From: an uncultured Methanosarcinales archaeon
GTDB taxonomy: Archaea > Nanobdellota > Nanobdellia > Woesearchaeales > DATGWN01
DNA: 64,000 nt
NCBI GenBank assembly: GCA_964624275.1
Contig: CAZUXP010000002.1
Span: 497-64,496 of the forward strand
Direction: 5' to 3'
Within the stretch, counting starts at the first letter, position 1. Each line of letters begins with the position of its first letter. Below are positions 9,536-58,688 of this stretch, in pieces. The notes beneath the pieces are model-generated. The model was not told where the DNA came from. It did no database searches and saw only the letters and a program-made list of their open reading frames with translations. Made by a program: the position numbers and the translations under genes.

Positions 9536-9547
9536 AGGGCAGAAGCC

Positions 9548-10098
9548 CTATTTTTTTTCTTTTTCTAAAAATGTTGTTACTTTATTTCTGAGATTTTCTA
9601 AATTAGAATTGTTGTGTATGATGTAGTTTGCTTTTTGAAAACAAATTTTAGTTTGTTGTCTTTTTATATTTGGGTGAATTCCTTTATCGATATCATCAAT
9701 AAGTTTGAATTCATCGAGATTATTTGGATCATTTTCTCTATTTCGTGTAATAATTCTTTGTGCTCTTACTTTAAATGATGCATCTAAACCTATGAGAACA
9801 AAGTATGGGAGTGTTTGAAAAAAATTAATTTCTGCGACATTTCTTATTCCTTCTATAACGTAATGTGAATTAGGTTTAAGTGATTTTGCAATTCGTTTAG
9901 CCCAATAATCCCCCCATATTTTTTAACTTTTTCATATCCGATTTTTTGGAGATTTTTACGATTAAGTGTAATATGTTGATTCATCGCTTCTTTTCGAACC
10001 TCATCACCAAATGATTTTTTTTCAAATCCATTTTCAATAAAAATTTTAGCAAGCTCTGTTTTTCCTGATCCGATAAATCCTGTTATACCAATTATCAT
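9548..10098 (-). pseudogene. P-loop nucleotide kinase (dephospho-CoA kinase-like), frame broken at a G6 homopolymer
   Basis: N-terminal ORF carries the P-loop IGITGFIGSGKTE. The C-terminal 110 aa continue in the +1 frame straight after the C6/G6 run at 9910-9915 (...VIEGIRNVAEINFF...). Either a true pseudogene or a homopolymer sequencing error. Confidence 0.5.
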
Positions 10099-10623: not shown

Positions 10624-11610
10624 ATGATTAAAGTAGCAATTAATGGTTTTGGCCGAATAGGTCGAATGGTGTATAGGGTTCTCAGAGAAGATAGTGATGT
10701 TGAAGTTGTTGCAGTAAACGATTTAACGGATACGAAAACATTAGCACATTTATTAAAATATGATTCAGTTCATACACGAATACCAAATGTGAGTTTTACT
10801 GATTCACAAATCGTTGATAATGGAAAACATATTCAAGTGTATGCACAAAAAGATCCATCTCAATTACCTTGGAAAGATTTAGACGTTGATGTTGTAATTG
10901 AGTCCACAGGTTTTTTTACAAAGCGTGAAAAAGCTGCATTACATTTACAAGCGGGTGCGAAGAAAGTTATTATTTCAGGACCAAGTGGTGATGCTGATAT
11001 TGTTATCGTAAAAGGTGTAAATGAGCATGATTATGACAAAGAAAAGCATCATATTATTAGTAATGCGAGTTGTACAACAAATTGTTTAGCACCAATGGTT
11101 AAAGTTTTAGATGATAATTTTGGTATTAAACGAGGATTTATGACAACAGTTCATTCATATACAGGTGATCAGCGTCTTGTAGATGCGCCACATAAAGATT
11201 TACGGCGTGCAAGAAGTGCAGCAGTCAGTCAAATTCCAACATCTACAGGAGCTGCAAAGGCAGTTGCACAAGTCATTCCAAAGATGGCTGGAAAATTAGA
11301 TGGCATGGCGATCCGAGTTCCAACACCTGATGGTTCAGTCACAGATTTTGTGTGCGAATTAGAAAAATCAACAACAATTGAAGAAATTAATTCGTTATTT
11401 CAAAGCGTTTCAAATAATCACCTAAAAAGTATTTTAGAATTTACCACAGATGAAATTGTTTCTCAAGATATTATTGGAAATCCACATTCAGTCATATTTG
11501 ATTCAAAATTAACAAAAGTGATGGATGGAAATTTTGTAAAAGTTATTGGATGGTATGATAATGAATGGGGTTATTCGAATCGTATGGTTGATATATTAAA
11601 ACTCTTATAG
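10624..11610 (+). CDS. gap: glyceraldehyde-3-phosphate dehydrogenase, type I (bacterial/eukaryotic type)
   Basis: NAD-binding NGFGRIGR, catalytic SNASCTTNCLAP, and an AGGTG Shine-Dalgarno sequence upstream. Confidence 0.9.
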   Translation: MIKVAINGFGRIGRMVYRVLREDSDVEVVAVNDLTDTKTLAHLLKYDSVHTRIPNVSFTDSQIVDNGKHIQVYAQKDPSQLPWKDLDVDVVIESTGFFTKREKAALHLQAGAKKVIISGPSGDADIVIVKGVNEHDYDKEKHHIISNASCTTNCLAPMVKVLDDNFGIKRGFMTTVHSYTGDQRLVDAPHKDLRRARSAAVSQIPTSTGAAKAVAQVIPKMAGKLDGMAIRVPTPDGSVTDFVCELEKSTTIEEINSLFQSVSNNHLKSILEFTTDEIVSQDIIGNPHSVIFDSKLTKVMDGNFVKVIGWYDNEWGYSNRMVDILKLL

Positions 11611-11689
11611 AGTCTTGTCAATACCGTATTTGTGAACTTTAATTTGGTTCACAATTTTATTTTTAACAATTAGTAACATCGTATAACTC

Positions 11690-11780
11690 TGTGGTTTTAT
11701 GACTACTGTCCATCTTGCCTAAATACGTTTGTGTACAAGGAAAAATCTTGTTTTCCGTGCACAAATAGATATTTTGTTTT
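11690..11780 (+). ncRNA. candidate small RNA or conserved intergenic element, copy A
   Basis: About 75% identical to 40990-41080 (shared TGTCCATCTTGCCnAAAT...TACAAGGAAAAA...TTTTyCnCGCACA). A TATA-like box lies about 27 nt upstream, and a hairpin plus T-run downstream. Confidence 0.3.
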
Positions 11781-11936
11781 TTCATGAATATTTGGAAAGT
11801 TATGTATTCTAAAGGTATTGAAGATATGGTTGTTCAACCATCAAAGTGTCCTATGACTTTATGTAAAATTTAATGCTTTTTTGTCGCCAACTATATTTTA
11901 GATAAATTTATTAACCTATTTAATTCCTAAAGGAGC

Positions 11937-12320
11937 ATGATATCAATAAGTGAATTAAAAAAATTCATCAATGAAACACATAAAAAACAAATGTTTGATT
12001 GTCGTAATATTGCAATTGATAATTATGAGGAAGAAATTATAACTCGAAATAATGAACTACAAAATTTTGCGAAACATTTTGAGGTTATGTTCAGTTCAAA
12101 TGAAGTAAGTGAAGAAAAGTTAATCGATGTTTATAGTTTGTATATACAACATATAATCAATTTTTTTGAAGCAGTTGAAAAAAAAACTTCTAATCTCACT
12201 AAAAGCGTTTTAAATGAACAACTAAATATGTTAATAAATAAGCACCAAAAACTTCAAGTAAGCAACATAGTATCGGTATCAACAATCGTGGATGAGTTGA
12301 TACAATTATGTAAAAAATAG
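11937..12320 (+). CDS. hypothetical all-helical protein
   Basis: 127-aa ORF with an AGGAG RBS, immediately upstream of the ParA-like gene. No recognisable motif. Confidence 0.4.
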   Translation: MISISELKKFINETHKKQMFDCRNIAIDNYEEEIITRNNELQNFAKHFEVMFSSNEVSEEKLIDVYSLYIQHIINFFEAVEKKTSNLTKSVLNEQLNMLINKHQKLQVSNIVSVSTIVDELIQLCKK

Positions 12321-12357
12321 GCAAACATTTATATATATCTCAGTAATTCAATTTGAA

Positions 12358-12379
12358 ATAGTTTTTCGCCAAAAACTAT
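12358..12379 (+). promoter_or_regulatory. perfect 9-bp inverted repeat ATAGTTTTT-CGCC-AAAAACTAT upstream of the ParA-like gene; a related half-site lies at 11877-11894
   Basis: Palindrome seen directly in the sequence. The related motif TTTTTGTCGCCAACTAT lies upstream of the preceding gene. Confidence 0.35.
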
Positions 12380-12396
12380 GAAAAAGGTGTTTTGTT

Positions 12397-13212
12397 TTGA
12401 GAAAAATTTGTATAATTAATCAAAAAGGTGGTGTTGGAAAAACAACTGTCACAGTAAATTTAGCAGCAGGTCTTGCACGAGCTGGTAAAAAAGTTCTGCT
12501 TATTGATTTAGACCCACAGGGCAATTTAGCAACATGTTTGCCAATTAGCGAAGAAAAAAAAAATATGTATCACATATTAATTGAAAATGCAAATCCGCTT
12601 GAATGTATTCATCGCGTAGCAATCAATTTAGATTTGATATCGTCAGATGAACAACTTACAAAAGCAGAATTATTATTAGCAACTGAACCTGCGCGTGAAT
12701 ATATTTTATCAAAGCGATTAAAATCAATTAAAAAATATGATTATGTATTTATTGACTGTCCACCATCATTGGGACTTTTAAATCAAAATGCTTTATTATA
12801 TTCACAAGAAGCTTTTATTCCAGTATCAACTGATACACTTGGTATAGATGCACTTGTAAAAATGGAAAAGGCAATTACTGTGCTAAATGACGTATTTTCA
12901 CATGATTTAGAAATAGGTAAAATAATCCCAACACAGTACGATAAACGAATTAAAATTTGTCGAACAAGTCTCGCTGAAATTCAAAATATTTCGTATGAAA
13001 AAGTCACAAATCCGATTCGCATAAATTCGAAAGTAAAAGAATGTGTGAGACATAAAAAGTCTATTTTTAGTTATGCGCCTTCAAGTCCAGGTGCCGTTGA
13101 TTTTAAAGAACTCGTTCGAAACATCTTATATCAAAACGAAATGGGTGACAGTGATGTTACACTTTCTTTAGATATAAAAGAAGGGAAAAAGCAAGCATCA
13201 TCTAAAAGTTAA
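12397..13212 (+). CDS. ParA/MinD/Soj-family P-loop ATPase
   Basis: Deviant Walker A NQKGGVGKTT, LIDLDPQGN, and Walker B YVFIDCPP. Confidence 0.85.
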   Translation: MRKICIINQKGGVGKTTVTVNLAAGLARAGKKVLLIDLDPQGNLATCLPISEEKKNMYHILIENANPLECIHRVAINLDLISSDEQLTKAELLLATEPAREYILSKRLKSIKKYDYVFIDCPPSLGLLNQNALLYSQEAFIPVSTDTLGIDALVKMEKAITVLNDVFSHDLEIGKIIPTQYDKRIKICRTSLAEIQNISYEKVTNPIRINSKVKECVRHKKSIFSYAPSSPGAVDFKELVRNILYQNEMGDSDVTLSLDIKEGKKQASSKS

Positions 13213-13218
13213 AAAAAT

Positions 13219-13517
13219 GGAAGGGAATAAGCCACCTTCTGTAAGATTTCACTTTTGTGAAGAATCTTTGGGAACATGTAACTAAGCGGATTAAACCTTG
13301 CACTTGTCAGGATGTCCGTTTCATCCATTCTTACATATAAACTCAGTTTGTTAACTCAATTCGGTTACCCAAATTTTCAAAACATCATCGCTAAATGTAA
13401 GGGGTCTCGTTTCTGTTACAGAGCCAATGATTACTCATTCTTAGTTTGCACCAAGTGACATACACGCAGTGGGTGGACTTTCCTCAGCAGTAACTACCGT
13501 CGGTTCCCTACCCTTCC
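13219..13517 (-). ncRNA. rnpB: RNase P RNA
   Basis: Minus-strand transcript with P1 formed by 5' GGAAGGG and 3' CCCUUCC. CR-I GAGGAAAGUCCACC lies near the 5' end and CR-V ACAGAAGGUGGCUUA near the 3' end, with a P4 pairing CCACC/GGUGG. The island is GC-richer than its AT-rich surroundings. Confidence 0.75.
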
Positions 13518-13585
13518 AAATTGTAGGAACAAATATTTATTTAAAAAAGTATGTATTATGTGGATATGAGATAGATGTTTCTAAT

Positions 13586-14710
13586 TTATCTCAAACATTG
13601 AATTACGAATAATTCAGATTTACCCATAGAAATAGTCTGTGTTTGAATTTTTTTAAAATATTCTTTTGCAATTTGACATACAAAATTACTATTGTTTGTT
13701 AAAAGTGTGATTGTTCCATTTTTTGAGAGAACTGCTAAACTTCGTTTGAAAAATTGGTGATACGTTTTTGACAATTTTGCTTGTGTGTGCTCTGAATAAT
13801 ATGGTGGAACAGTTATTATTTTATTAATTGAGTTTGGTTCAAATTTAGTGTCGATCCAATCAACATCAATTCGACTAACAGATATTGCAGGAAGTACACC
13901 TGCAATTTTTGCGTTTTTTTTTGTTGCATCAACACATTTTGCGAGGATATCGCTTGCAATAAGTTTTTGTGTTGGTTCTGTAATGTTTTTATCTATTTCT
14001 GATAACATATTTATTGATGTTTGAAAAAATGGTTTGAGGTTAAAAAGTGTTAAATCTTCTTTTTGATAAAATCGTGGACTTTTATTTGTGCAAAAAAATG
14101 CTGATTCAATCATAATTGAACCTGAACCGCAAAAAGGATCAAGTACGATATCTGTTTTTAAAACAGTACTTTTATACCATAATCCTGCTGCTACTGTTGA
14201 GCGAATTGTTGTAGGGGATGTGTAAATTTTATATTCTCTTTTTTCTAAATTACTCTGAACAAGGTCAATACCTATAAAAACTTGGTCGTGTAAGTATTGA
14301 ATATGGACTGTGACTACTGGTTTTGTTACATTGACTGTTGCATCAGGAATTTTTTTTTTAATTAAAGAACCGCAGAAGCTTCCAATTTCTTGCATATCTT
14401 CACCTAGTATTTTTGCAACAACTTTAAATGAATGTGTTTTATCAATCCATATATTCCAATCATATGCACTGATGACTTTTTCTAAATCTATTTTCATAGT
14501 TTGTTTTTCAAATTTAAAAGAATCGATATATGCTAAAACTTTTAGTGCAAGTTGGTTTTTATAAACATAAAAGATCGCTTGGTTGGTTGAACAGTTTTGA
14601 ATATAACAACATTGAGGGTATGGTGATGTTGCTTTTAGATGTAATATATGTTTGATTTCTTTAAGACATTCTTCTTCAAATCCTTTATCACAAAAAATGA
14701 GTAAGTTCAT
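13586..14710 (-). CDS. THUMP-domain tRNA (guanine-N2) methyltransferase (Trm14/TrmN-like)
   Basis: SAM motif I DPFCGSGSIMIESAFF and motif IV ITVPPYY, with an N-terminal THUMP-like region. Confidence 0.6.
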   Translation of the reverse strand: MNLLIFCDKGFEEECLKEIKHILHLKATSPYPQCCYIQNCSTNQAIFYVYKNQLALKVLAYIDSFKFEKQTMKIDLEKVISAYDWNIWIDKTHSFKVVAKILGEDMQEIGSFCGSLIKKKIPDATVNVTKPVVTVHIQYLHDQVFIGIDLVQSNLEKREYKIYTSPTTIRSTVAAGLWYKSTVLKTDIVLDPFCGSGSIMIESAFFCTNKSPRFYQKEDLTLFNLKPFFQTSINMLSEIDKNITEPTQKLIASDILAKCVDATKKNAKIAGVLPAISVSRIDVDWIDTKFEPNSINKIITVPPYYSEHTQAKLSKTYHQFFKRSLAVLSKNGTITLLTNNSNFVCQIAKEYFKKIQTQTISMGKSELFVIQCLR

Positions 14711-14807
14711 AAAAAAGTAACAAGTTTATCTTGTTTTTAAAGTGTTCTGTTTTGTATATTCTTATTCACAACAAACTATTTAAACTCAAACATAATCAAT
14801 ATATACT

Positions 14808-15377
14808 ATGACTCAAACAGAAGTTATTGACAACGAAAATATGCAAATTATTCATGGCGAAACATGTCCTATTTGTCTTAGAAAAACACTCACATTAATT
14901 GAAGAAGAACGTGAAATCCCATATTTTGGAAAAGTGTTTTTATTTGCGATGACTTGTCAACATGCTGAATGTGGTTTTCATAAATCAGATATTGAGGCTG
15001 CTGAAATTCGTGAACCTTGCTCTATTCAATTTGAAGTGAGTGGAGATGATGATTTATCAGTACGTGTGGTAAAAAGTGCTAATGCGACTGTTAAAATACC
15101 TCGTATTGTCACAATAGAATCTGATGAAACTGCTATTGGATATATTTCAAATATAGAGGGATTATTTAACAGAGTTAAATCTATTTTAGAATCTATTCGT
15201 GATTCATCAGATAATCCGGATGAAGTAAAAAAAGCTAAAAACCATCTTAAAAAGATTCAACGAATACTTTGGGGTAAAGATAAAATAACTATTACTATTG
15301 AAGACCCCTCGGGTAATTCTGCAATAATTAGTGATAAAGCAGTTGTAAAAAAGTTATCAAAACCCAAGAAAAAATAA
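14808..15377 (+). CDS. ZPR1-type zinc-finger protein
   Basis: CPICLRK...IPYFGKVFLFAMTCQHAEC matches the zf-ZPR1 pattern. Confidence 0.5.
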   Translation: MTQTEVIDNENMQIIHGETCPICLRKTLTLIEEEREIPYFGKVFLFAMTCQHAECGFHKSDIEAAEIREPCSIQFEVSGDDDLSVRVVKSANATVKIPRIVTIESDETAIGYISNIEGLFNRVKSILESIRDSSDNPDEVKKAKNHLKKIQRILWGKDKITITIEDPSGNSAIISDKAVVKKLSKPKKK

Positions 15378-15431
15378 TAAATACGTCTAAGTAGTCATTA
15401 AACTTATAAATATGTATAGATTTTTAAAATT

Positions 15432-16577
15432 ATGATTCGATATTTACAGAGATTACTTCCAACTCCAGGATATAAAAAAAAACATCTTATATTATTGGAA
15501 GATCTTTGTACAAAAGATGATTTTTTGTTTTTAAAGAAATATTTAAAGTCCGATCACATTTCAGTTGCTTATGAATCATTACAAACGAATTTTTTAAAAC
15601 ATCAAAAGTTCCCACAAATATTTCCAACAAAAGAGCAATCACCATTAAAGTCTCAAATAACTGAGATTAATGTATCTATAAAAAAAGAAGTTTTAAAGCG
15701 ATTTTATAGTGATTTTTCAAAATTAGCACCATATTTCTTTCCTCTCATTATGCGGGATGTTTCTGACTTAGATGCTGTTAAACGAACATTAATGCTTCAA
15801 TTATTTAGTTTAGATCCGATTCAAATTTTAATAATGGCAGATGAACGTGTACAAATAAAAGAATTAATAAAAACTGTTTGTTCATTTGACTCTCAGAGTA
15901 AAGTTGATGAAGCAGAAAATCTTAGTTTCGGAAAATTTTCACCTTTTTTATCTCTTAAACAAGGTATTTTTGCAGTTGAACATTTAGAAAAAATTGGTGA
16001 AAAAAAACAAGCTCAACTTGCAAAAGTATTACAATCAAACTCAATTTCTTATACGCAAGCAGATAAATCAAGACAAGAAGATATTAAATGTTCTTTTTTA
16101 GCTCATGCAACACCTCAAGGTGGGTTTTTTGTTGGAAAAGGGTTTGATATATTATTGAAACAAATACCATTCTCTCAAGATTTGCGTGATTCATTTCAAA
16201 TAATATTTTTAATTCGAGATATGAACAGACAAAAATTCAGTGATGTAATTGAGATTACAAAAGATATAGAGCAAGATTTACAAATACCTGATGAGTTAAC
16301 TCCTGAAGATATGGATTTTTTACAAGGTTATATAGAGTATGCACGTGATATAGAAGTCGATGTGCCAAATTCATGCGAGAAAATAATAACGGATTGGTCA
16401 GAAAAAGTTATTCAGGCAGATTATTTACAAGTCTCAAACATTTCAAAATCGCAACTAGTAGGTATAATTCGAATTGCAAAAGCAAATGCGCGTATGCATC
16501 TTCGAGATCAAGTAGGTGCGAAGGATTTAAAAATTGCATTTGATTTGCTCCAAACATCAATAGAAATTACAAATTAA
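15432..16577 (+). CDS. hypothetical protein
   Basis: 381-aa ORF with typical codon usage and no Walker or other catalytic motifs. Confidence 0.4.
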   Translation: MIRYLQRLLPTPGYKKKHLILLEDLCTKDDFLFLKKYLKSDHISVAYESLQTNFLKHQKFPQIFPTKEQSPLKSQITEINVSIKKEVLKRFYSDFSKLAPYFFPLIMRDVSDLDAVKRTLMLQLFSLDPIQILIMADERVQIKELIKTVCSFDSQSKVDEAENLSFGKFSPFLSLKQGIFAVEHLEKIGEKKQAQLAKVLQSNSISYTQADKSRQEDIKCSFLAHATPQGGFFVGKGFDILLKQIPFSQDLRDSFQIIFLIRDMNRQKFSDVIEITKDIEQDLQIPDELTPEDMDFLQGYIEYARDIEVDVPNSCEKIITDWSEKVIQADYLQVSNISKSQLVGIIRIAKANARMHLRDQVGAKDLKIAFDLLQTSIEITN

Positions 16578-16628
16578 CTATAAACTTATATATAAGCTTT
16601 ATAATTACACTAATTGGGGTTGTAACGA

Positions 16629-17321
16629 ATGAGTAAGGATGAACAATCAGTATTAACGTATGAAAAGTTATTCAATATTCTTCGTTCTGAAAAATCTGAT
16701 TTAAAAATTCAAAAACTGTCTGATTCATATTTTCAACAAATTGTTTCTTATTTACAATTAAAAACAAAAAGTGTTCAATCTGCAAAATCTTCTGATTTAT
16801 TTTCAAACGAACAGGTTGAAGCAGAACAACAACTTCGAAATGCGCAAAGACTTGTTCAAGATATTTATGATCGTCGAGAAAAAAAAGTTGTCACGTTGGC
16901 TTTAAACAAAAGTCGTTCGTCACAAAGTATGATAGATACAAGTTCATTACTTGTGCAAGAACAGGAATTATTATATGATTTAGTGTCCGTATTGTTAAAA
17001 TATCGAAAAAATATTTTACATTCGGTATTAAAACTTAATTTTGTTGATGATTCAGCTAAGTCAAATTCTGATGATTTACAACAAGTTACGAGTGTTGAAT
17101 CAAATTCAGCTGAAACGGATGATTCTCACCAAAACGAGAGTTCAGATTTATCGCCACAGAATCCGAAAGTTCAAGTCCAAATTTTAGAAGATATGGATCC
17201 TGTTACTGGTCCAGATATGCAAAAATACGGGCCGTTTTCAAAAGACGAAATTGTCGCTTTAGATGCAAAATTAGCAGCACTACTTGTCAAAGCAAAAAAA
17301 GTTTCATTGGTTGATTCGTAA
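16629..17321 (+). CDS. hypothetical protein; N-terminus resembles the GINS51 A-domain
   Basis: The YEKLFNILRSEKSDLKIQKLSDSYFQQIVSYLQ pattern (L..E...L..LpdsfY..v..yi..L) is typical of archaeal Gins51; acidic C-terminal half. Confidence 0.3.
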   Translation: MSKDEQSVLTYEKLFNILRSEKSDLKIQKLSDSYFQQIVSYLQLKTKSVQSAKSSDLFSNEQVEAEQQLRNAQRLVQDIYDRREKKVVTLALNKSRSSQSMIDTSSLLVQEQELLYDLVSVLLKYRKNILHSVLKLNFVDDSAKSNSDDLQQVTSVESNSAETDDSHQNESSDLSPQNPKVQVQILEDMDPVTGPDMQKYGPFSKDEIVALDAKLAALLVKAKKVSLVDS

Positions 17322-17549
17322 ATAGATCTTGAGTTAGTTTTTATATTTAACGACAGTAATATCGTATAACATATCTTCTCTAAAATTATTTTTTGTATGA
17401 AGCCGGTAATAGAAATATTTTATTTAACTTTAAATTAATCTCAGTGTAAAAAATAAGATACACACTTTATGTCAAATATAATTGATTTAAAAAAATAATA
17501 AAACCAATCACAAGGTAATATCCAGTATACAATAAAAATTTACTTACAA

Positions 17550-20440
17550 TTAGTAACCGCGCGCTGAAATTCTCGCAAAAGCTTGAATCTTACACGCCGG
17601 TTCTATCAACCCGATCTTTTATCGGAGTTTTTTAATGTCTTTTTTCAAGTCAGGTTTCGTGCTTAGATGCTTTCAGCACTTATCCCTTGGTGCGTAGCTG
17701 CCCAGCAATGCCTTATCAGACAACTGGTACACCAGTGGCACCGGTCCCTCGTTCCTCTCGTACTAGAAGGGCCTTACTTTCAGACATACTACAAATCTAG
17801 TAGATATCAAACAAACTGCCTCACAGCGTTCTGAACCCAGCTCACGATCCCTTTTAATGGGTGAACACCCCCACCCTTGGACGCTTCTGCACGCCCAGGA
17901 TAGGAAGAGCCGACATCGATGTAGCAAGCCTCGCCGTCGATATGAGCTCTCGGGCGAGACAACTCTGTTATCCCCGGAGTAACTTTTCAGTCATCCCCGA
18001 CCCCCACTAAGGAGGTACGGAGGTTCGCTAGACCACACTTTCGTGTTTGAGTTTGTTACTGTTCCAAACACAATCAGGCTGACTTATGCTCTTGCACTCT
18101 ACAGTGGATTTCTGACCCACTTGAGTCAACCTTTGGGCCCCGTCGATACATTTTCGACGGGGTGCCACCCCAGCCAAACTGTCCGACTGCTGATGTTCGT
18201 AATACAAATTACGTAAGTGGAGCAAACATCGTAGGATAGTGTTACATTGGTGCCTATTCCTAACCTAGCGACTAGGACTTCAAACGGCTACTATCTACGC
18301 TGGACAACAACATTTACTTCACAACAACAGCCTACAGTAAAGTTTCACGGGGTCTTCGCTTCCCACTAGATTTCTCCGGCCTTTGCACCGGAATGGAGTA
18401 TTCGGAGGATTGTTCGTAGGGACACTGTGAATCTCGTTACGCCATTCATGCAGGTCGTCAATTAAACGACAAGGCATTTCGCTACCTTAAGAGAGTTATA
18501 GTTACCCCCGCCGTTTACCTGATCTTAGCTCTGTTGAACCAAAGTTTTAATTACAGGCACTGGGCAGACGTCACCTTCTGTACTCACCCTTACGGGCTAG
18601 CAGAAAGTTATGTTTTTGTTAAACAGTCGGACTCACTTTGTTATTGAACCCTGCATTCGCACACATACATGCACAAGTACAGGGACCCTTTATACCGAAG
18701 GTACAGGGCTAATTTGTCGAATTCCCTTACGAACATTAATCCTTTACACTTTAGGCTTCTCACCTAGGGGCACCAGTGCTGGTTCTGGGTACGGCTTTTT
18801 GTAATTTTTCATTGTCTTTTTTTCACGGATTCCAGGCCTTCTCGAAATAGTTCATACAAACTACCATTCTATGCTTTACTCTGCTTCTCATTATAACAAT
18901 ACTCCACAGACTTATGCATATTAGCACGAGCGATAGCTCGTGTTCAAATAGCCCAAAATGTCAAATACAATGCTTGTGTCACCACGCATATACAAAAAGT
19001 ACAGGAATATTAACCTGTCTCCCTTTCCTTATTAGATCCGTTAGGATCGTAGTTAGGACCGACTAACTCTTCACTGATTTACATTGTGAAGAAACCCTTG
19101 CCCTTTCAGTGACGGTGATTCTCACACCGCTATGATCTTACTACCACCAGGATTCTTATTATTGAACGGTTCACACACACTTGCATGTATGCTTTTGCCC
19201 GAACAATACACCAGTCTACCATGTACAAACTTTGCACACCTAAAGTATCGGTAAATATCTTAGCCCCGTCCATCTTCAGAGCCCATTGTCTCGATAAGTA
19301 AGCTGTTACGCACTTATTATAGGATGGCTGCTTCTAAGCCAACCTCCTCACTGTCTTAGACAATAGACATCTTTTACTCATTAACACTTAGATATTATTT
19401 TGGGACCTTAACTTTAGTCTGGGTTGTTCCCCTCTCCGGACTAGGGCTTACCCCTAGCCCGCGTCTCCTTGCGTCTACAGTGTTACAACATTTTGAGTTG
19501 GACAAAGAACCGAGGGATTTCTCCCCCAAAATCCTAAATCCGTCGCTTTACAATTGTAACTACCTCGGCAAAGGCTTGACTACGGCCAACTTTGACTGGA
19601 ACCAGCTATCACCGCTCTCGATTGGCTTTTCACCCCTAACCCCAAGTTAAAAGAGCACTTGCACGTAGCACCTCTGCGGACCTCCACGATATCTTACTAT
19701 CGCTTCATCCTACTCAGGGTTAGATCGAGCGGCTTCGGGTCGTATCCATGTGACTTAAGGCGCTTATGACACCTTATCTCTCGCAAGCTGCAGAAAATTG
19801 GTTTCCCTACGGGTACCACGCGTTACGTGTTACCCTCGCCACACAAATACACTTCCTGGCACGTTATTCAAAACGTACGATAGAACTTTCGCCCTATCAA
19901 ACTATCACCATTAGGTTTCAGAGTCTTTTAACTCCCTATCAGAGGTTCTTTTCAACATTCCCTCGCGGTACTGTACGCTATCGGTCTTGGTAAGTATTTA
20001 GGGTTAGAAGTTAGTCCCTCCTATATTCACGCATAATTTCCAATATACGCTACTCTTTACCGCCTATGACTGTCTGTGTTCCTTTTACGGGGCTATCACC
20101 CTGTGTTGCGTTGCATTCCAGCAAACTTCAAATTACACAACGAAGCCTAGGGGCGGAACCACATCTCCTCTTTATTTCTAAAGACGATTCAGTTTGCCCT
20201 ATTCTGTTTTTAGTCGCTCTTACTCACAGAATCTCAATTGATTTATTTTCCTACGGGTACTAAGACGTTTCAATTCCCCGCGTTTCCCAACCTTATCGGT
20301 TTTATAGAGAAGTCTCATTCGGAAATCTTTGGTTCGAAGACTACATACATCTCGCCAAAGCATATCGCCGTTAGTCGCGTCCTTCTTCGGCATACCAAGC
20401 CAAGTCATCCACCTAATGGTTTACTTTATTTTTATTGTGT
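17550..20440 (-). rRNA. rrl: 23S ribosomal RNA (ends approximate)
   Basis: Reverse complement contains the sarcin-ricin loop CTAGTACGAGAGGAAC (about 17750), the 3' domain GTTGATAGAACCGGCGTGTAAG (about 17580), and 5' GGTGGATGACTTGGCTTGG...GAAGGACGCG (about 20400). Confidence 0.85.
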
Positions 20441-20638
20441 TGGATATTACCCTATGATTGGTCTCATTAAACGTGAAATGATAAATTTACACAAAATGTG
20501 TTTTTTTATCAAACGTAGCGGCTCGTAAGATTGCTACGCGCTTTAAACCCTTGACCCATAAGCATATGCTTACGTGCTGCAGCAACAAATTGTTGCGTTT
20601 GATTAGTGTTTAAACGGACTGCATTACATCCGAGTAAA

Positions 20639-20712
20639 TGGACTCGCCGAGATTTGAACTCGGGACCCCCTGCTTGCAAGGCAGGTGCTCTACCGGACTG
20701 AGCTACAAGCCC
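20639..20712 (-). tRNA. tRNA-Ala (anticodon UGC) in the 16S-23S spacer
   Basis: Cloverleaf on the minus strand: GGGCUUGUAGCUCAGUCCGGUAGAGCACCUGCCUUGCAAGCAGGGGGUCCCGAGUUCAAAUCUCGGCGAGUCCA, with the G3:U70 alanine identity pair. CCA is not encoded. Confidence 0.85.
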
Positions 20713-20780
20713 GTGTGTATGAAAATGAAAAAGCATACCAGCAACATATTTGTTGTATTAATATTACTATTAATAAAAAA

Positions 20781-22252
<1,472 letters not shown>

Positions 22253-22953
22253 TTGGTAATTATCCTTATTCGCATATTATACCTAATATAATTATTTGCT
22301 GTTGTACTATCTTATTAAAAGAATTGTCGTTGAATACACATAACGTTTGTTATTGTATTACATTTGCACACATTGCATTGTCAAAATCACAATTACAATA
22401 TGTTGCCGGTATGTTTCTCGTAATTGAACATGAGTTCAGTTACACATGGTGTGTATTTGTGTTGATTTTTGGAGACGATATTCGTGATTGAATTCAATCA
22501 GAATCTGTTAACAGAAAAATAGGTTATTTATAAAGTTATTTGTTTTAAAATAGTTTTTATTTGCTGAATTCCTCATACAGAGTGGGTATTCGTATACTAG
22601 TTTCATTTAGACGAATAATAATCATATTTTATTTGTGATTAAATGATAAAATAATATTCAAATTTTTAAAAAATAAAAAACAAAATCAACTTATCTGTTT
22701 AATTTCGAATCAATGCAATAATTAATGTTAAAACTATTGCAACTGGATATGCGGGAAGTGGGAGCAATCGAAGTTCAGTCAAGACCCAAGCTATTACTAA
22801 ACACAGTAACAGTATTTGAAAACTTTTTGGTATTGAGATTGATTTTTTCTTTGTCATATATTTACTTCGATATTAAATCTTTATAAAATTATCTTATTAA
22901 ATAATAAATATAAAATGAGATGCTTGGTTCATTCGAATAATTTTTTATTATAA

Positions 22954-40134: not shown

Positions 40135-40923
40135 CTACAAAGATTTTGAATCTAATTGCAGTTCTTGACGAAGTTCTTGAGCTGGTTGCTGAATAAAAAA
40201 ATCACCGAAATGCTCGTCTTGATGGATATCTATTTGTTGCGAATTCGAAAGATGCAGCAATGGAATAAAAGTGTAAATTTGATCTTTTCGAGATTTTGAG
40301 GGAATGAGTTGGGAAAATGTTAATGGTTTATGTTTATTTTTTGAGAAATACTCTTTAATAGCAGTGTGAACAAGATCCATAGATGATGAAATATCAAATT
40401 GTTTTTGTGGAATGTGAACTTGCGGAATATCAAGTGGTAAATTTCGAATTTGTCTTCGTTTATTCACTTCAATCGCTTGTTCTAATGCATCAATTAAATC
40501 ATATACCGAAACTTTTCGTTTTCGCGGCTGCGGAGTTCGCTTTTGCAACGTATACGTTTCTTCTGTCTGGGATGTATCATCTTGTGATTCTAATGATTCG
40601 TCATCCATTGAAAAATCATCTAAAAACTCTTCATCTTGCCGTTCAGCTGAAGAAATAAGTTGATCTAAAATAGTCATATCTTCCGATACAAATCGTTGAG
40701 ATTTCAATTTTAACAATAATGCAGATGCAAGAACAACTTTACCTGATAACTTAAAATTCATCTCAGTTAAATTTTTTAATCTGTTTAAAAACTCAGCCGC
40801 TAAGGCGCTCAAGTCTATATCCCATGGATTCATCTCATGAGATTTGACTGCATCCATAATCATAGCTTGCCAAGAAATATCATCACCTTGCAATATATTA
40901 TCCAGAATTGTAGTTTGACCCAT
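40135..40923 (-). CDS. scpA: segregation and condensation protein A (ScpA kleisin)-like
   Basis: N-terminal NPWDIDLSALAAEFLNRL...VLASALLLKLKSQ matches the ScpA N-domain. Acidic linker and a winged-helix C-terminus. Confidence 0.5.
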   Translation of the reverse strand: MGQTTILDNILQGDDISWQAMIMDAVKSHEMNPWDIDLSALAAEFLNRLKNLTEMNFKLSGKVVLASALLLKLKSQRFVSEDMTILDQLISSAERQDEEFLDDFSMDDESLESQDDTSQTEETYTLQKRTPQPRKRKVSVYDLIDALEQAIEVNKRRQIRNLPLDIPQVHIPQKQFDISSSMDLVHTAIKEYFSKNKHKPLTFSQLIPSKSRKDQIYTFIPLLHLSNSQQIDIHQDEHFGDFFIQQPAQELRQELQLDSKSL

Positions 40924-40989
40924 TATTATAACACCAGCACTCAGTATTTATAAACCTTACTTTTGTATAGTTTGCGACAAAAGTTCTTT

Positions 40990-41080
40990 ATAGTGCGATG
41001 CTTTCAAGACAGTTGTCCATCTTGCCGAAATTACTCTGCATACAAGGAAAAACTGCAAGTTTTTCACGCACAGAAAATCA
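40990..41080 (+). ncRNA. candidate small RNA or conserved intergenic element, copy B
   Basis: Paralog of 11690-11780, with a TATA-like CTTTATAG about 25 nt upstream of the conserved block. Confidence 0.3.
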
Positions 41081-41171
41081 AAAAGATTTTCTCATGAATC
41101 GACCAATTTTGTGATTTTACTTCAAGGCACTATAATTTATTAATGTTGCAAACTAGTACATTTATATATCA

Positions 41172-41918
41172 TTACTCAATCACTGTTCCTTTGCCATTCT
41201 TTTCTTCTAAAAATAATCTGACGCTTTTCAAATCCTGACCATTCACAATAACAACTTTTAATCCATTTTTATATGCATATTTACTTGCAATAATATCAAA
41301 AGGTGAATGCGAACCAGCAGACCACGAATCTACACCAATTATTGCAAAATATTCTTTCCAAGACAAATTTTTAATTGGTTTTTGATTTGAATTACTTCGA
41401 GGATCTTTTGCATACACATAATCAATATTCGTAAGATTATAAACTGTTTTAGCATCCAAATGTTTTGCAAACCGAGTTGCAACATAATCTGTAGATGAAC
41501 CAGGTTTCATTCCATATGCAAAAAAAACATTATATTTTTTTGTATCTAATTTTTTTAGCGTGTTTAATATTTTTGGAAATACTTGAATATGAGACTCTTT
41601 TTGTGAATACGCAACCATTATTTCTTTTACGAGTTGTGCATTTAACTTAGTTGACTGAATACCCAACCAATCAGCCGAATTAAAATTTTGCGTAGAAACG
41701 TCTAATAATTTAGTAGCCTCATTTAAACCTCGAATGTATGTTCGAGCAGTTTTTCCGCCACCAATTACTATACAACACGAATATCCTTTTACTAAAATTT
41801 GAGATATCATTTGCACAAAACACCGTAAATATTCAACTTGAATTGTATTTTTTACAATAATTGAACCACCCAAAGAAATCACTACTGTTTTTGACATAGA
41901 ATTAAGCTCTTTTTTCAT
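41172..41918 (-). CDS. pyrH: UMP kinase (archaeal type)
   Basis: Amino-acid kinase fold VVISLGGSIIV, VIGGGKTARTYI and GIQSTKLNAQL. Confidence 0.6.
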   Translation of the reverse strand: MKKELNSMSKTVVISLGGSIIVKNTIQVEYLRCFVQMISQILVKGYSCCIVIGGGKTARTYIRGLNEATKLLDVSTQNFNSADWLGIQSTKLNAQLVKEIMVAYSQKESHIQVFPKILNTLKKLDTKKYNVFFAYGMKPGSSTDYVATRFAKHLDAKTVYNLTNIDYVYAKDPRSNSNQKPIKNLSWKEYFAIIGVDSWSAGSHSPFDIIASKYAYKNGLKVVIVNGQDLKSVRLFLEEKNGKGTVIE

Positions 41919-42421: not shown

Positions 42422-45400
42422 TTACTTAGTACCTTTTATTCGAGTGAAAGCACGTTCGATATCATCTTTGCTCCATTCTGTTGTTAATAAAAATTCTCGA
42501 AGACGTTTTTCACTAATACCTTTTTGCAATTCTCGTTTCATATACGCGGTTAGTTGCGGATATGGATCTTGGGATAATGAAACACTAATCGGTGGTTGGT
42601 TTTGTTTAGAAACAGTCTTCTTGCTTTTCTTTGAAATTACAACAGTTGCACCAACAATACCAACAATCATGAATATTCCGACAAGCACTATTAAAACATT
42701 AAATGAAGAGATAATTCTTGATAAAATGGAAGAATCTGTTTGTTCATCTTCAGTTTCATCTTCAGTTTCTGACTGAGGAGGTTGTTGAGGTCTTGGAGTT
42801 GGTGTTGATTGATTCGATAATGATTCTTCTTGTGTTGTATTCTCAACATCTTCATCAGTTTCTTCTGATTGTGAAGGAGGAGGAATTGAGACGCTTCCAC
42901 TTGAACCGCTTCCAGGACTACCACTACCCGGACTACCGCCAGGACTACTTGTTGTACAACTCTGCGTTGTACTAGGTTTATTCGTTGTTAGCCCACAACT
43001 ATTTAGATCTACAACTGTTCGTGTCTGTGTTGAACCTGAACAACTACCCCACGAACCAACTTGCCAATCAACTGTACACATCTGAGTTACCCCTGAATAT
43101 GTTAAACCTGAAATATTGTATAATGTCGAACTACTATTTGTAATGGTGTATTGACTTGGAATTGTTGAAGAATCGTTTAATACTACATAATATTCATTTG
43201 CTGCATCACAATTTGCTGAAAACTGTGATATTGAGGTAAATGATGCATCTTTAATACAAATACTATTATGTTTTGTTAAATCACCAGTTAAATTGATAAA
43301 CAATGATTTAGTCACACCCGAACTTAATTGTAAACCTTTCACAAAAATGCTTGCTTTATTTTCTTTTTGACTTGATTGTAATATTATTCTTGTAAGATTC
43401 AAAGGAGATTGACTTAAATTATCACTATATGAAACAAGTGGTGTATTTGAAGATGATTTTATTTGAACGCTTACTGGATTTTGCGAAGTATTCTGAGTCA
43501 AATTATCACTTCCATTGACAAAAATCATAATATCTTCCTGATTTGTTGCAACATTAGTTGTATTTCCAACAATCGTACCCTCTGTATTTTGACTTATTTG
43601 TTGTGAGTCTAAACTTACATTTACTTGTACTGTTGTTTGATTCACAAATCCAAATCTATCTTCAGCACTAAATGTAATATTAAATACTCCATATTCTAAA
43701 ATATATACTGAACCTAATAACGTGTCACTTGTTATAAATTCACTTGCATCAATTGTTGTACTCCCTATCATATATGATGCATCCGTAATATTCCTATTAT
43801 ATGAAATATTTATTGGAATTTCAAGTTTTGTAATATTTTGATGAGTTGAGTTTGGTTGATCAAATAACGTGTATTGTAATGGCGTTGTATTAATAAAAAT
43901 CTCGTGTGATGCAGAACTCACCCCTACACTATTATTCGCATAAAATATTAATTCATATTCACCATCAGATAAATTAATTACTGTTGGTGCAGTATAGGTT
44001 TGATTATTCGTTGTATTGTAAAAATAGAGTGTGTCTGCATCATCTGCTTCAAACTCAATAAGTATTTGATTCGTGCCATAGTATGAATTATTTAATGGAC
44101 TTATTACAGTGATATTCGGCTTTGAACTTGGTAAAGGAGTTGTTTCATTTATTTTAACACTAAAAGTCCTATTTTGAGATATCGTTTCATTTAAAGTATT
44201 GTTAACCCAAAATGTTAACGTATGTGTTTTATTATTCGCAAATGTGATTAGTTGTGAAAGCGAACTGTTTTGTACAATTCCCAATACATCATTTGTTTCA
44301 TTTGTTACCCACATATACGAAACATTTTCGGATGAGGAATCAAGCGCAGTTGCATTTACCCAGATACTTGTCGTATTATATGTTATATTTAATGGACTAT
44401 TGATTATTAAATCCATACCATTAAAATCCACAGTAATATTAAATGAAGTCCAATTTATATTTCCCGCTTCATCGGTTGCAGTAAAATTAAGTGTGTAATT
44501 ACCATTTGCCAAAATATGGTTAAATGATTCATTGTAAACTAATGTTGTACCATTTCCAAGATTAATTTGCCTTAAAATGTTTTGCGGTAATGAAACATCA
44601 TCACTTACACTAATATTAAATAGTACATTTTTTGTTGTATTAAATACTTCATTTTCTTGTGGACTATGAACAGTAAGATTTGGTTTGATTGAATCTTGCA
44701 CATATGTTACATTAATTTTAATTATGTTTGTATTATTTACCGAATCATTTGCATATAATGTGATTTCATAAGGCGTATTCAAAACTAAATTTGTTAAATT
44801 AAAAATGAGCGTTTCATTATCAGTCGAATTAAAAGGACCAAACTCTCCTGTTTTATTTGTTGTTGCCCAAAATCGAGAAACATCAGATAAACCAGTTTTA
44901 ACTGAATTTGAAAATGCGGTTACATTAATCGTAACATTTTCAGTATATACAATTGAATCAGGCGATAATATTGTTATATTAGGTGCTTTTCTATCAAAAT
45001 AAAATTCAACTAATTCGTTTGAGATTAAACCTTCCGTATCATTTGCAAAAAATTCAATCTCATATTTTTTATCTTGTGTGAATGTCCGCATTACAACAAA
45101 ATCAGGTTCGCTAATATTGTATGGTTTTATATCTTGTGGAACATATGAAACACCGCCTATTTCAAACCATAAATGTGAAACATTCACAAATAAATCTGTT
45201 GCAGTAAAATTAATTAATAATTGGCCATTTGCATTCGTATATATTTTTTCGCTAATTGGACCAGATATATTTAAAATAGGAGGCGCAGTATTATCCGTAT
45301 TAATTCCAAAAAAAAGAGTTTGAGTTGATGAACGATTGTTTGTGTCTGTTACATTTATTTGAACCTTATAAGATGTTTGATTTGCCAATGTTATAGAATC

Positions 45401-48400
45401 ATTCGTATAACTATATAACGCGGGAATCGCTGAATCATTTATGTGTAAATTTGAAGAAATATTACTCGCATTTTTTAATATTTGTGAATGAATGATTGTG
45501 TTATTATTCGCATAAAACAGTTCATAACTTATATACGATAAATTAAATCTATCACTTGTTGAAAAATTTAACAACAGTGTTGTTTCATTATAGTTAACAT
45601 TATTTTGTGGATTATAAATTGTAATTATTGGATCAAATAAATCAATTGTTACATTGACAGTTGTTGCGTTCCAATTTCCTGCTGCATCAGTTGCATTGAC
45701 TTGAAAATAATGAATTCCTTCCGGTATGCCTGTGAAAATAGGATTTGAATTCGCACAATCAACTGAACCAAAACCAACTCTTGTACATTCAACTGTTAAA
45801 TCACTTTCATTGCGATTATCCGAGACATTTACTCCCATCATAACACTATTCACAAAAATAAGCGTGCTATTTGGTTGTAATATTTCCACAAAAGGTTTTT
45901 GCGTATCAGGCAATTCAATCTTAAAACTTTTACTCAAATTATAGACATTATTTGTCGTATCGTTCACGTAAATTGTGATATTATGATTCATTACTTCTAA
46001 TCCATTCATCAAATCAGTTAAATTATATGTTTTATTTAATAAAAACTCATTAGAACCATAAGCCATATCATTTACTGTTGTATTCGTCTCATTCCCATCA
46101 AAATAATACCAAACATGTGAGATATTAATATTATCTGTAATATTTGCGATAATTGACACATTTGATGTATTGAAAACAGGAGTGATTTGTGATAATTCAT
46201 CTAACAACGTTATTTGAGGCTTTGTCGTATCTACTGTAAACGAAACGGTCTCCTCTGTACTCTTATCAAATTGATCACGAACAACAAATGTTTTTGTATA
46301 TATACCATCTGCTAACTCTGAAAAATCATTTGTACAACTAAAATTTTGTTGGTTTATATTTTGACATAATGCAACACTGTCTTCTTTTATACGAACGCTT
46401 TTTAATAACGTATTATCACTGACATTTATGATAATTGATATATCTTCAGTATTATAAAACCCATTTTGAATTGGCGAGATTACATCGATATTCGGTTTAT
46501 TCGTACTCATATTTATAACACGAAAGAACAGTGATTTATTTTGTAGCCATCCATTACTATCATACGCTAAAATTGAAATATTTAATAATTCTTCATCAAA
46601 CTCATTAAAATCTTCTGTAAATGAAAATGAAACTGTATCATTAATTATTGAATCGTTATAATACAAAATCGGATTTGTTATTGAAGTCTTACCTGTAAGA
46701 TTATTATTCAAAAAAACAGTTACATTTGTTAAATTAAAATCATCAAAAATAGTTATATTTATGTTTTGAGCTGTTTTATCAGTGTAATTTTGATTTTGAT
46801 TTGGAGAATGAATAGTTACTACTGGTTTTGTAACATCAACAGTGAAATTTAAAAGTTTATGAGATGTTCTATTTAAATCATCAATTGCAGTAACATTAAT
46901 TTGATATTCACCATCTGTAAAAACGTTTGGAAATGAATTAACGGTATAAGTATCGTCATTAACTAATATATTTGTATTGGCAACAACATTTGTATTATTC
47001 CATAAATTTTGTATTGTATATGAAACTAACGAAATTTGATAGTTATCTGTTACTGTTAAATTTAAAAAGATTGTACTATTTTTGTAAACTTTTTCTAATG
47101 GATTTGATATAGTAATTATCGGTTCATTTGTATTTGGATCATATGCCCGAAATTCTCGTTGCGCAAATAATTTATTTCCATTTACATCATAGGCAGTAAT
47201 GTTTATTCGTAATGGAAAAGCATCAAATCGCGACAGATTTACATTTGAAATATTCCAAAATTCAGTACTGCTTTCTCCAAAAGAAATCGAATTATTTTCA
47301 GGAGTTATATTCTTTTCGGGAGTATAAATAACATATGTTGCATTTTTAACACCAAACATATCTTCAAACGTTAAATTAATGTCTATTTGTGTCGTATTAA
47401 ATAATTGACTTTCATTTATGGAAGTTATATTTACCGTTGGTGGTGTTTCATCTATTGAAAATGTAAAATTCTGTGAGCCTTCATCACCAAAAACATCTAC
47501 CGCAGTTACAAATAGTGTATATGCGCCATCACCTTGCGTAATTTCTGTTTGAACATTTGGCCATAATTCTTGTTTTTCATCGCCAACAACATTTGTATTT
47601 GTTGAAATAACTGTATTATTAGTATGTACATCTTTAACCAAATAACTAATTTCATCTATATAACCTTTACCAGTTACATTGAATAAGAATGTAATGTTCC
47701 GATTTCCAGTTACATTTTGGTTCGGACTTAAAATCGTTACATTTGGAGGATTTAATCCAGGTTGATATGGCGTAAATGAAATAGTTTGTGTATTTTTATT
47801 CCCACTGATATCATATGACTCAACTGTGATGTTTACAACTTCTTTATCAAAAACTGTAAAATCAAAATCTGTTATATTCCAATAAACCTGCTCAACAGGG
47901 TTTGTAAAATTTCCAATTGATTCATTTGTTTGGTTTAACACACCATTTATGTATAATGATGCATTTTTTATACTTACTTCATCAAACAAACTCATATTTA
48001 TATTCAAAATTGTTGTATTATACTCTTGAGCATCTACTGGAAATAAAATGTCAATAGCAGGTGGCGTTGTATCAACTGTAAAATTCACAGTCGCATTACT
48101 TATTTTCCCAAAAGAATCATTAACCTGAAATGTTTCAGAATAAAAACCATCAGATACACTTGATAAGATAATATCACATAGTTTTGTTTTCAATTCATTA
48201 CCTTCACAAAAAGGACTTGGCGCTATTGATAAATTACCGCTCAGCCAAATAACTTTATCTATACCTGATTTATCACTCACATTAATCTGGAAATCAACCG
48301 AAGAACTATTAACTAAATTTTCAGGTTTAATAATAGTTATATTTGGATGTCCTACCGATGGATCAATAACACTAAAATTAACGGAATTTGTAAATGTATT

Positions 48401-49582: not shown

Positions 49583-49659
49583 TTGATAACCCCTAGGTAT
49601 ATTTAAGAGCTGTTTTATTTATAAATATGTCGATTTTTGTCGACTCAAAATACTTAAAT

Positions 49660-58601: not shown

Positions 58602-58688
58602 ACGTAATTTTCGGATGATAATTATTTATAAATATATCGATTTAATTAAAACAGAAGTTTTATTAAAATATATGGATTTACTCAATAA

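Follow-up and report, generated by a model that had tools for sequence, protein, structure and literature searches.

A two-copy intergenic element with conserved blocks and a predicted hairpin in a Woesearchaeales genome, putatively a pair of sibling small RNA genes

A stretch of 64,000 nucleotides (nt) of contig CAZUXP010000002.1, from an uncultured archaeon of the Woesearchaeales (the window, hereafter), carries the same short element in two unlinked intergenic regions: copy A downstream of the GAPDH gene, and copy B between scpA and the UMP kinase gene. That these two gaps share one element had been proposed in an earlier note on this DNA, and it is borne out by exact block matches and by an alignment score far above that of shuffled sequences; the element is real, confined to its lineage and statistically solid. 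We propose that the copies are a putative lineage-specific pair of sibling small non-coding RNA genes of ~75-100 nt, a reading to which we assign a probability of roughly 40%. A small RNA (sRNA) fits best because the element combines a near-invariant 18-mer predicted to be unpaired, a fixed spacer of 9 nt whose sequence has diverged, a hairpin with a free loop and independence from the neighbouring genes.

The extent of the repeat units was defined by local alignment of the copies to each other, by nhmmer and by a covariance model. On the plus strand, copy A spans 98 nt (11692-11789) and copy B 101 nt (40999-41099), showing that the element lies at the locus at which it was first described and that the true unit is wider. 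The copies are identical at 68 of 101 aligned columns (67%); over the core for which about 75% identity had been claimed the measured value is slightly lower, 45/65 (69%). Their local alignment score is 69, compared with 18 +/- 3.5 for shuffles, and blastn of copy A against the rest of the window returned copy B with E = 1.7e-5, or 3e-6 within the 6.65 kb of intergenic DNA. Once ribosomal RNA (rRNA) processing stems, promoter boxes and palindromes are set aside, this pair is the top intergenic match. The identity falls in blocks of 13+4, 12 and 8 nt, and the similarity looks constrained, rather than the remnant of a fading duplication, because random placement of the 33 differences would seldom leave the identity gathered into runs as it is here (13, 12 and 8 nt; p ~0.007). 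The 18-mer TGTCCATCTTGCCnAAAT occurs exactly twice in the window, both times on the plus strand, in copy A at 11707-11724 (TGTCCATCTTGCC[T]AAAT) and in copy B at 41014-41031 (TGTCCATCTTGCC[G]AAAT). Seventeen of its 18 positions are invariant; the 14th, bracketed, is T in copy A, G in copy B and A in a variant of copy B from the Logan assembly described below. In minimum-energy folds the 18-mer is predicted to be unpaired, and it is a candidate seed or binding box. It is followed in both copies by a gap of 9 nt, differing between them at 5 of 9 positions, and then by the exactly matching 12-mer TACAAGGAAAAA, which forms the 5' side of the hairpin (11734-11745 and 41041-41052). The 3' block TCATGAAT is conserved at 11782-11789 and 41092-41099 and reads TCGTGAAT in the Logan variant. 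Further upstream, 11626-11648 and 40943-40965 match at 18 of 23 positions, a marginal similarity that 25 of 1000 shuffles equal.

The relation of the element to its neighbours differs between the two loci. Copy A is flanked on the plus strand by the GAPDH gene upstream (10624-11610) and, downstream, by an open reading frame (ORF) of 127 codons (ORF127, 11937-12320) followed by parA, and it points in the same direction as both neighbours; copy B is flanked by scpA (40135-40923) and the UMP kinase gene (41172-41918), both on the minus strand, and is opposite to both, confirming the different orientations reported earlier. If read on the plus strand, copy B runs into the 3' end of the convergent gene; if read on the minus strand, copy A likewise meets the GAPDH 3' end. 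A promoter or leader role is excluded because copy B lies between the minus-strand scpA and UMP kinase genes and copy A parallels GAPDH and ORF127. More generally, a shared role as promoter, leader or riboswitch was rejected, there being no constant position or orientation upstream of a regulated gene. The earlier statement that the element is not a promoter therefore stands, as one and the same unit is oriented oppositely with respect to its flanking genes at the two loci.

Exploring the coding potential of the element, we found by hand translation in all frames that no reading frame is both open and conserved in the two copies, and gene callers never called an ORF over either of them. That the element encodes a small protein, or is what remains of such a gene, is very improbable and largely excluded; one example would be the ORF of 38 codons in copy B (40998-41114, MLSRQLSILPKLLCIQGK...), translated from a leaderless mRNA. 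The frame S-I-L-P-K would place the variable base of the 18-mer at the third position of a proline codon, where CCT, CCG and CCA are synonymous, and in the same frame TGT/TGC is a synonymous and GTA/ATA a conservative difference. Against a protein, in copy A the frame meets a TGA just upstream and lacks an ATG, the loops of the copies differ in length by 2 nt, which changes the reading frame from one conserved block to the next and leaves the 3' blocks in different frames, and the Logan variant turns a conserved Cys codon into Arg. Small-protein coding was rejected given that the frames are not conserved and that six candidate small ORFs are without a match in a collection of 15 billion proteins.

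Modelling of the fold indicated that a hairpin is plausible in both copies and that its strand is ambiguous. The predicted hairpin of copy A (11728-11765) consists of a 9-bp lower stem, an AA bulge and a 6-bp upper stem, GGAAAA/UUUUCC, with a free energy of -15.3 kcal/mol on the plus strand and -12.1 kcal/mol on the minus strand. In copy B (41035-41074) the upper stem is kept and extended and the lower stem is reduced on the plus strand, the free energies being -6.7 (plus) and -10.9 kcal/mol (minus); those of the Logan variant are -5.8 and -10.2 kcal/mol, respectively. Hence the upper GGAAAA/UUUUCC stem described earlier is found in both copies with different loops, while on the plus strand the lower stem is kept only in copy A, where its 9 bp are perfect; in copy B just four Watson-Crick pairs and one G.U pair are left on this strand, and the stem is retained on the minus strand through G.U pairs. 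One stem change between the copies is compensatory (U-A to C-G). The five others, four between A and B and one in the variant, are one-sided transitions that create C.A mismatches on the plus strand and G.U pairs on the minus strand. Over the three sequences (A, B and the Logan variant) 80% of the cells in the paired columns are paired on the plus strand and 89% on the minus strand. Fold z-scores of the units range from -2.1 to -2.9 on either strand, and that of the copy A hairpin alone reaches -4.9.

Transcription signals were scored with a TATA matrix trained on the upstream regions of 52 window ORFs. The promoter box of this genome has the consensus TTTATAAATA (e.g. 13538-13547, 22541-22550 and 40947-40956), and most boxes begin 29-34 nt before the start codon, which suggests leaderless mRNAs. 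The matrix predicted the 5' end of the RNase P RNA within 1 nt from a box of 9.8 bits, and gene promoters typically score 8-13 bits, the 35 best of the 52 genes scoring at least 7.8 bits. Each copy is preceded on the plus strand by a weak TATA-like box, CGTATAACTC at 11680-11689 for copy A (-2.2 bits) and TTTATAGTGC at 40987-40996 for copy B (-0.2 bits), from which starts are predicted at 11711 and 41018, equivalent positions in the two copies. The boxes that had been claimed are thus present at equivalent spacing, and they are weak, falling below zero on the genome-trained matrix. As to the T-rich tract reported downstream of each copy, copy A carries T4+T6 (TTTTGTTTTTT, 11772-11782), a possible archaeal terminator, and copy B only a T4 tract (41087-41090), which is weak evidence because T4 runs occur about every 72 nt (13.8 per kb per strand). 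Boxes on the minus strand are stronger (6.6 and 7.2 bits) and lie at positions that are not equivalent between the copies. The signals are compatible with weak independent transcription of the plus strand, and chance would produce them too in this AT-rich DNA. The plus strand is favoured by how the weak TATA-like boxes are spaced and by the T tracts, the minus strand by the pattern of stem substitutions. With a score of 9.9 bits on the plus strand as well, the scpA box at 40947 could conceivably drive divergent transcription toward copy B.

As sibling sRNA genes, the two copies would each be transcribed by themselves, independently of their neighbours. The near-invariant unpaired stretch of 17/18 nt (GUCCAUCUUGCCnAAAU on the plus strand) would provide the recognition surface for a target RNA or protein, and the A/U-rich hairpin with its freely varying loop would give stability. 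If the 18-mer is a seed, target sites at translation starts would read ...GGCAAGAUGGAC.... The closest known counterparts are the sibling trans-acting sRNAs of bacteria, such as Qrr1-5 and OmrA/B, and the intergenic sRNAs known from Methanosarcina and Haloferax. Like these, the element has unlinked intergenic copies of ~75-100 nt that are independent of their neighbours, and it combines a near-invariant unpaired stretch and a hairpin with diverging loop and flanks; unlike these, its promoter and terminator signals are weak, no target was found for it in the window, and it has no homologue outside this genome.

Several results weigh against the proposal of sibling sRNA genes. No target site was found in the window, and no homologue in any collection searched, Rfam included. 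The TATA-like boxes of copies A and B rank only in the top 5.5% and 3% of all 10-mers, respectively, the genes scoring far higher, and the box of copy A sits inside a separate 33-nt module (11655-11687) that recurs at 17339-17370. The T4 of copy B is at background frequency. The lower stem of copy B is lost on the plus strand, which the boxes favour, its pairing surviving only on the minus strand, and the covariation among the three sequences is matched by 168-169 of 500 shuffles and is therefore not significant. Finally, both homologous spacers of the nearest relative are without the element despite a near-identical parA leader. Of the signature of an independently transcribed sRNA that the earlier note had described, the anatomy, the block conservation and the exclusion of a promoter hold, and the promoter, terminator and stem arguments are weaker than was claimed. 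Regarding targets, a duplex scan of the whole window (50-nt windows, 64 kb) listed as its strongest duplexes only self-antisense ones. A guide or antisense role against RNAs encoded in the window itself (16S rRNA, 23S rRNA, tRNA-Ala and RNase P RNA) was rejected, as no convincing complementarity was seen; the best antisense matches to rRNA were runs of 10-12 including G.U pairs, judged to be at chance level in a target of ~5 kb (no shuffle control).

The element is a member of no described family. When the whole window was scanned with Rfam 15 at gathering thresholds, only the rRNAs, tRNA-Ala and RNase P RNA were detected, and permissive scans of both loci gave chance matches of 12-18 bits, where the thresholds are 41-93 bits; membership of a named family is excluded because there is no Rfam match, and the comparison with Rfam that had been suggested earlier thus pointed to no family. 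Archaeal C/D-box sRNAs carry box C near the 5' end, box D near the 3' end, usually C'/D' boxes as well, and a guide of 10-12 nt to rRNA or tRNA. This class was rejected since neither RUGAUGA nor CUGA is found in either copy on either strand. H/ACA sRNAs were rejected too, the element being a simple bulged hairpin with no pseudouridylation pocket and no tandem G.A pairs, in which the ACA of copy A is base-paired; K-turn and K-loop motifs are absent. The element resembles both classes of guide sRNA in its size, in that such RNAs are often independently transcribed, and in the ACA that follows the hairpin (GCACA), and it differs from them in having no boxes, no K-turn or K-loop and no pocket, and in the placing of the copy A ACA within a stem. 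A tRNA, a transfer-messenger RNA or a split tRNA half was ruled out, given that ARAGORN finds only tRNA-Ala in the window and that, as checked by hand, the 18-mer cannot form an anticodon stem.

Searches for relatives of the element extended from the window to several public collections. With nhmmer and the covariance model no third copy was found in the 64-kb window. A degenerate two-block pattern run against the 185,579 representative genomes of GTDB gave only 10 bacterial matches attributable to chance, and a stricter pattern gave nothing in the JGI metagenomes. A JGI scan with the 18-mer only returned at least 120 stretches; among the 122 matches listed, there is hardly any similarity to copy A or B outside the 18-mer itself (top score 46, to which the 18-mer alone contributes 36). 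In IMG/VR only chance matches with no similarity outside the searched blocks were seen, and the phage and plasmid collections had no match. In other genomes, ~100 kb of Woesearchaeota loci yielded no credible match to the covariance model and no near-match to the 18-mer with up to 4 mismatches. One 17.5-bit match of the covariance model in a contig of the nearest relative (L038, 5544-5614), similar by eye, was rejected because its alignment is no better than that of shuffles; it lies in the spacer between the MscS and phosphoenolpyruvate (PEP) synthase genes (L038 5401-5735), which measures 335 nt in the relative and 95 nt in the window. The use of ORF127 as an anchor for finding homologous loci led nowhere because this ORF is an ORFan: Pfam assigns it no domain, and searches of 5.8 billion proteins and of 1.84 billion representatives yielded no real homologue, only one marginal partial match (E 1.4e-5). 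It comes with an AAGGAG resembling a Shine-Dalgarno motif, and its sequence looks helical. The search of genomes and relatives and the covariance model, both advised in the earlier note, therefore produced no third copy in the window or the other collections. As far as public data reach there are no further copies and no conservation in relatives, which that note had named as evidence against its proposal; the test is a weak one because the nearest relative is itself distant. The lineage is thinly sampled. The top named matches of the window proteins are to Candidatus Woesearchaeota, and the only identical copies of these proteins were found in a single 65,905-nt NCBI contig and in the Logan contigs assembled from run SRR11308339.

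The nearest relative (GCA_007116655.1, contig SKHY01000030.1, also in ENA ERZ27301260) has a GAPDH 88% identical to that of the window. Its parA follows GAPDH directly, and a segment of ~650 nt containing copy A and ORF127 (11674-12320, plus strand, boundaries placed by hand) is missing, with the ~100 nt upstream of parA almost identical in the two genomes. At the second site, the spacer between the kinase gene and scpA is 96 nt in the relative and 248 nt here; the scpA TATA box is kept, and hand alignment showed that a segment of ~150 nt with copy B (40996-41142, plus strand) is absent. The UMP kinase at this site is 53% identical and is encoded on another contig of the same ENA sample, which may not be from the same organism. 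Both copies are thus present here and absent in the relative, and a gain here is indistinguishable from a loss there without an outgroup. The parA upstream region (12321-12420) matches L038 9700-9790 nearly base for base although the neighbouring spacers cannot be aligned, and it contains a palindrome at 12358-12379 (AAATAGTTTTTCGCCAAAAACTAT); judged from sequence, it is a strongly constrained non-coding leader or operator. A further insertion or deletion was seen at 9536-10098, where ~560 nt between the genes for PEP synthase and a low-molecular-weight phosphatase are absent in the relative, in which the two genes overlap; an 81-codon P-loop kinase-like ORF (9853-10098) lies within this stretch.

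An independent assembly of one sequencing run provided a second view of both loci. In the Logan assembly of SRR11308339 four contigs span the two loci and all of them end inside the elements, at window positions 11775, 11752, 41023 and 41003. Compared with the window they show three differences in 18.9 kb, all transitions and all inside copy B (contig L013): 41027 G>A, at the free position of the 18-mer; 41037 T>C, in the stem, where pairing is retained only on the minus strand; and 41094 A>G, within TCATGAAT. The breaks and the clustered differences suggest a multi-copy repeat with gene conversion, a near-identical third copy or a hotspot of variation.

These data bear on a rival explanation that we regard as possible though doubtful, only a little less probable than the sRNA proposal, namely that the element is an insertional dispersed repeat, a mobile or duplicated module loosely like bacterial MITEs (miniature inverted-repeat transposable elements), Correia or ERIC sequences, whose hairpin and blocks reflect the needs of a mobilising or recombining machinery and of which any transcript would be incidental. 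Consistent with insertion, the ~650 nt and ~150 nt that are extra here are absent in the closest relatives with flanking spacer sequence conserved, the ORFan ORF127 adjoins copy A, four Logan contigs end in the elements and the only mismatches fall in copy B, and the flank of copy A is mosaic. This flank holds the module at 11655-11687, which matches 17339-17370 at 28 of 33 positions (TTTTATnTTTAAC..AGTAAYATCGTATAAC; E = 7e-4); the module directly follows the GAPDH terminator at one site and the GINS gene at the other, and the element does not follow its second copy. The ends of the units, TTTTATGA...TCATGAAT, are weakly inverted, with 6 of 8 positions matching in each copy, and are too short to be told from chance at 31% GC. 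Insertion is opposed by the lack of a target-site duplication, hand inspection having revealed no direct repeat flanking either unit and, for the larger insertion at A, just a 3-4-nt 'TAG' that recurs at both junctions. The inverted ends are only 8 bp long with two mismatches, conservation is strongest in internal blocks, the opposite of MITEs, and no transposase or integrase was noticed near the copies, Pfam having covered five neighbouring ORFs only. Moreover, the extra DNA to the right of copy B is unlike the right end of the larger insertion at A, and copy B was accordingly rejected as a deletion derivative of that insertion, the right ends sharing no homology. The difference from the relative may also be a loss there. 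Finally, the copies are old (67% identity) with blocks intact, which argues for selection on something besides mobility.

In a wider comparison with MITEs and other dispersed repeats (Correia, ERIC, RUP and the SM elements of Sulfolobus), the element is alike in being ~100 bp long, intergenic, hairpin-forming and variably present among relatives, in breaking short-read assembly and in adjoining other short repeat modules. It differs in lacking a target-site duplication, in its imperfect 8-bp inverted ends, in the two copies in hand, in being best conserved internally and in that no partner transposase was noticed. Attachment (att) sites of an integrated element were rejected because what separates the copies is 29 kb that include the rRNA operon and the genes for RNase P RNA, MCM and GINS. 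Origin recognition boxes and Ter sites were rejected as well: there is no orc1/cdc6 among the annotated neighbours, the GC skew near 16 kb switches as at a terminus, and the two copies have a direct, not an inverted, arrangement.

The fixed distance between the two best-conserved blocks bears on another explanation, in which the element is a cis-acting, bipartite protein-binding site in DNA, made of an 18-bp box, a 9-bp spacer and a 12-bp box with a TCATGA palindrome, recognised by a regulator or a chromosome-organising protein with strand being irrelevant. The identical 9-nt spacing of the blocks, with the spacer itself diverged at 5/9 positions, is what such a site would show, and neither strand has a consistent strong promoter or terminator. 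In addition, the copies are near chromosome-segregation genes: scpA has copy B ~90 nt upstream, and parA has copy A ~600 nt upstream, a nearness that in two cases could be coincidence. We consider this explanation unlikely: the boxes are neither palindromic nor repeated, unlike most archaeal operator sites, a near-identical parA leader and the scpA TATA box are kept in the relative, where the element is absent, and the hairpin and its one compensatory change are left unexplained.

DPANN archaea have small genomes with very short intergenic spacers, which makes it unlikely that a non-coding unit of ~100 nt conserved in two of them is idle DNA. To our knowledge, regulatory RNAs in DPANN archaea are essentially uncharted, and a search of the literature turned up no paper on the subject. 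A more specific form of the sRNA proposal, which we hold only tentatively and with less confidence than the general one, is that the copies represent an undescribed family of sibling trans-acting sRNAs in DPANN with an invariant 17/18-nt 5' seed, a recent gain and gene conversion that makes the copies more alike or more diverse; if true, few candidate regulatory sRNAs would have preceded them in this group of reduced genomes. Should the element turn out to be transcribed as an sRNA whose seed is fixed, it would offer a handle on post-transcriptional control in DPANN; should it turn out to be a small mobile repeat, it would be evidence of mobile DNA between genes, and of gene conversion, in an archaeon with a streamlined genome. 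In either case, as the family appears confined to one sparsely sampled lineage, the general impact is modest.

Other features of the window, whose GC content is 31%, were recorded along with the element. The archaeal 16S-tRNA(Ala)-23S operon lies on the minus strand at 17.5-22.3 kb (17531-22252), with tRNA-Ala at 20639-20712 according to ARAGORN, and the gathering-threshold scan with Rfam placed the archaeal RNase P RNA at 13219-13517. Nowhere in the 64-kb window was a 5S rRNA detected. The rRNA operon is flanked by inverted repeats that resemble processing stems (17496-17524/20441-20469 and 20731-20750/22397-22416). Cumulative GC skew has its maximum at ~16 kb, and gene orientation changes there from mostly plus to mostly minus (window ~14000-18000); this switch, next to the rRNA operon and the genes for GINS and an MCM-like protein, is a terminus-like convergence. 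An ORF of 2386 codons showing a tandem-repeat architecture occupies 42422-49582, ~23 repeat units with a period of 75 nt are found within 54629-57115, and promoter-like boxes are common to 49615-49636 and 58622-58643.

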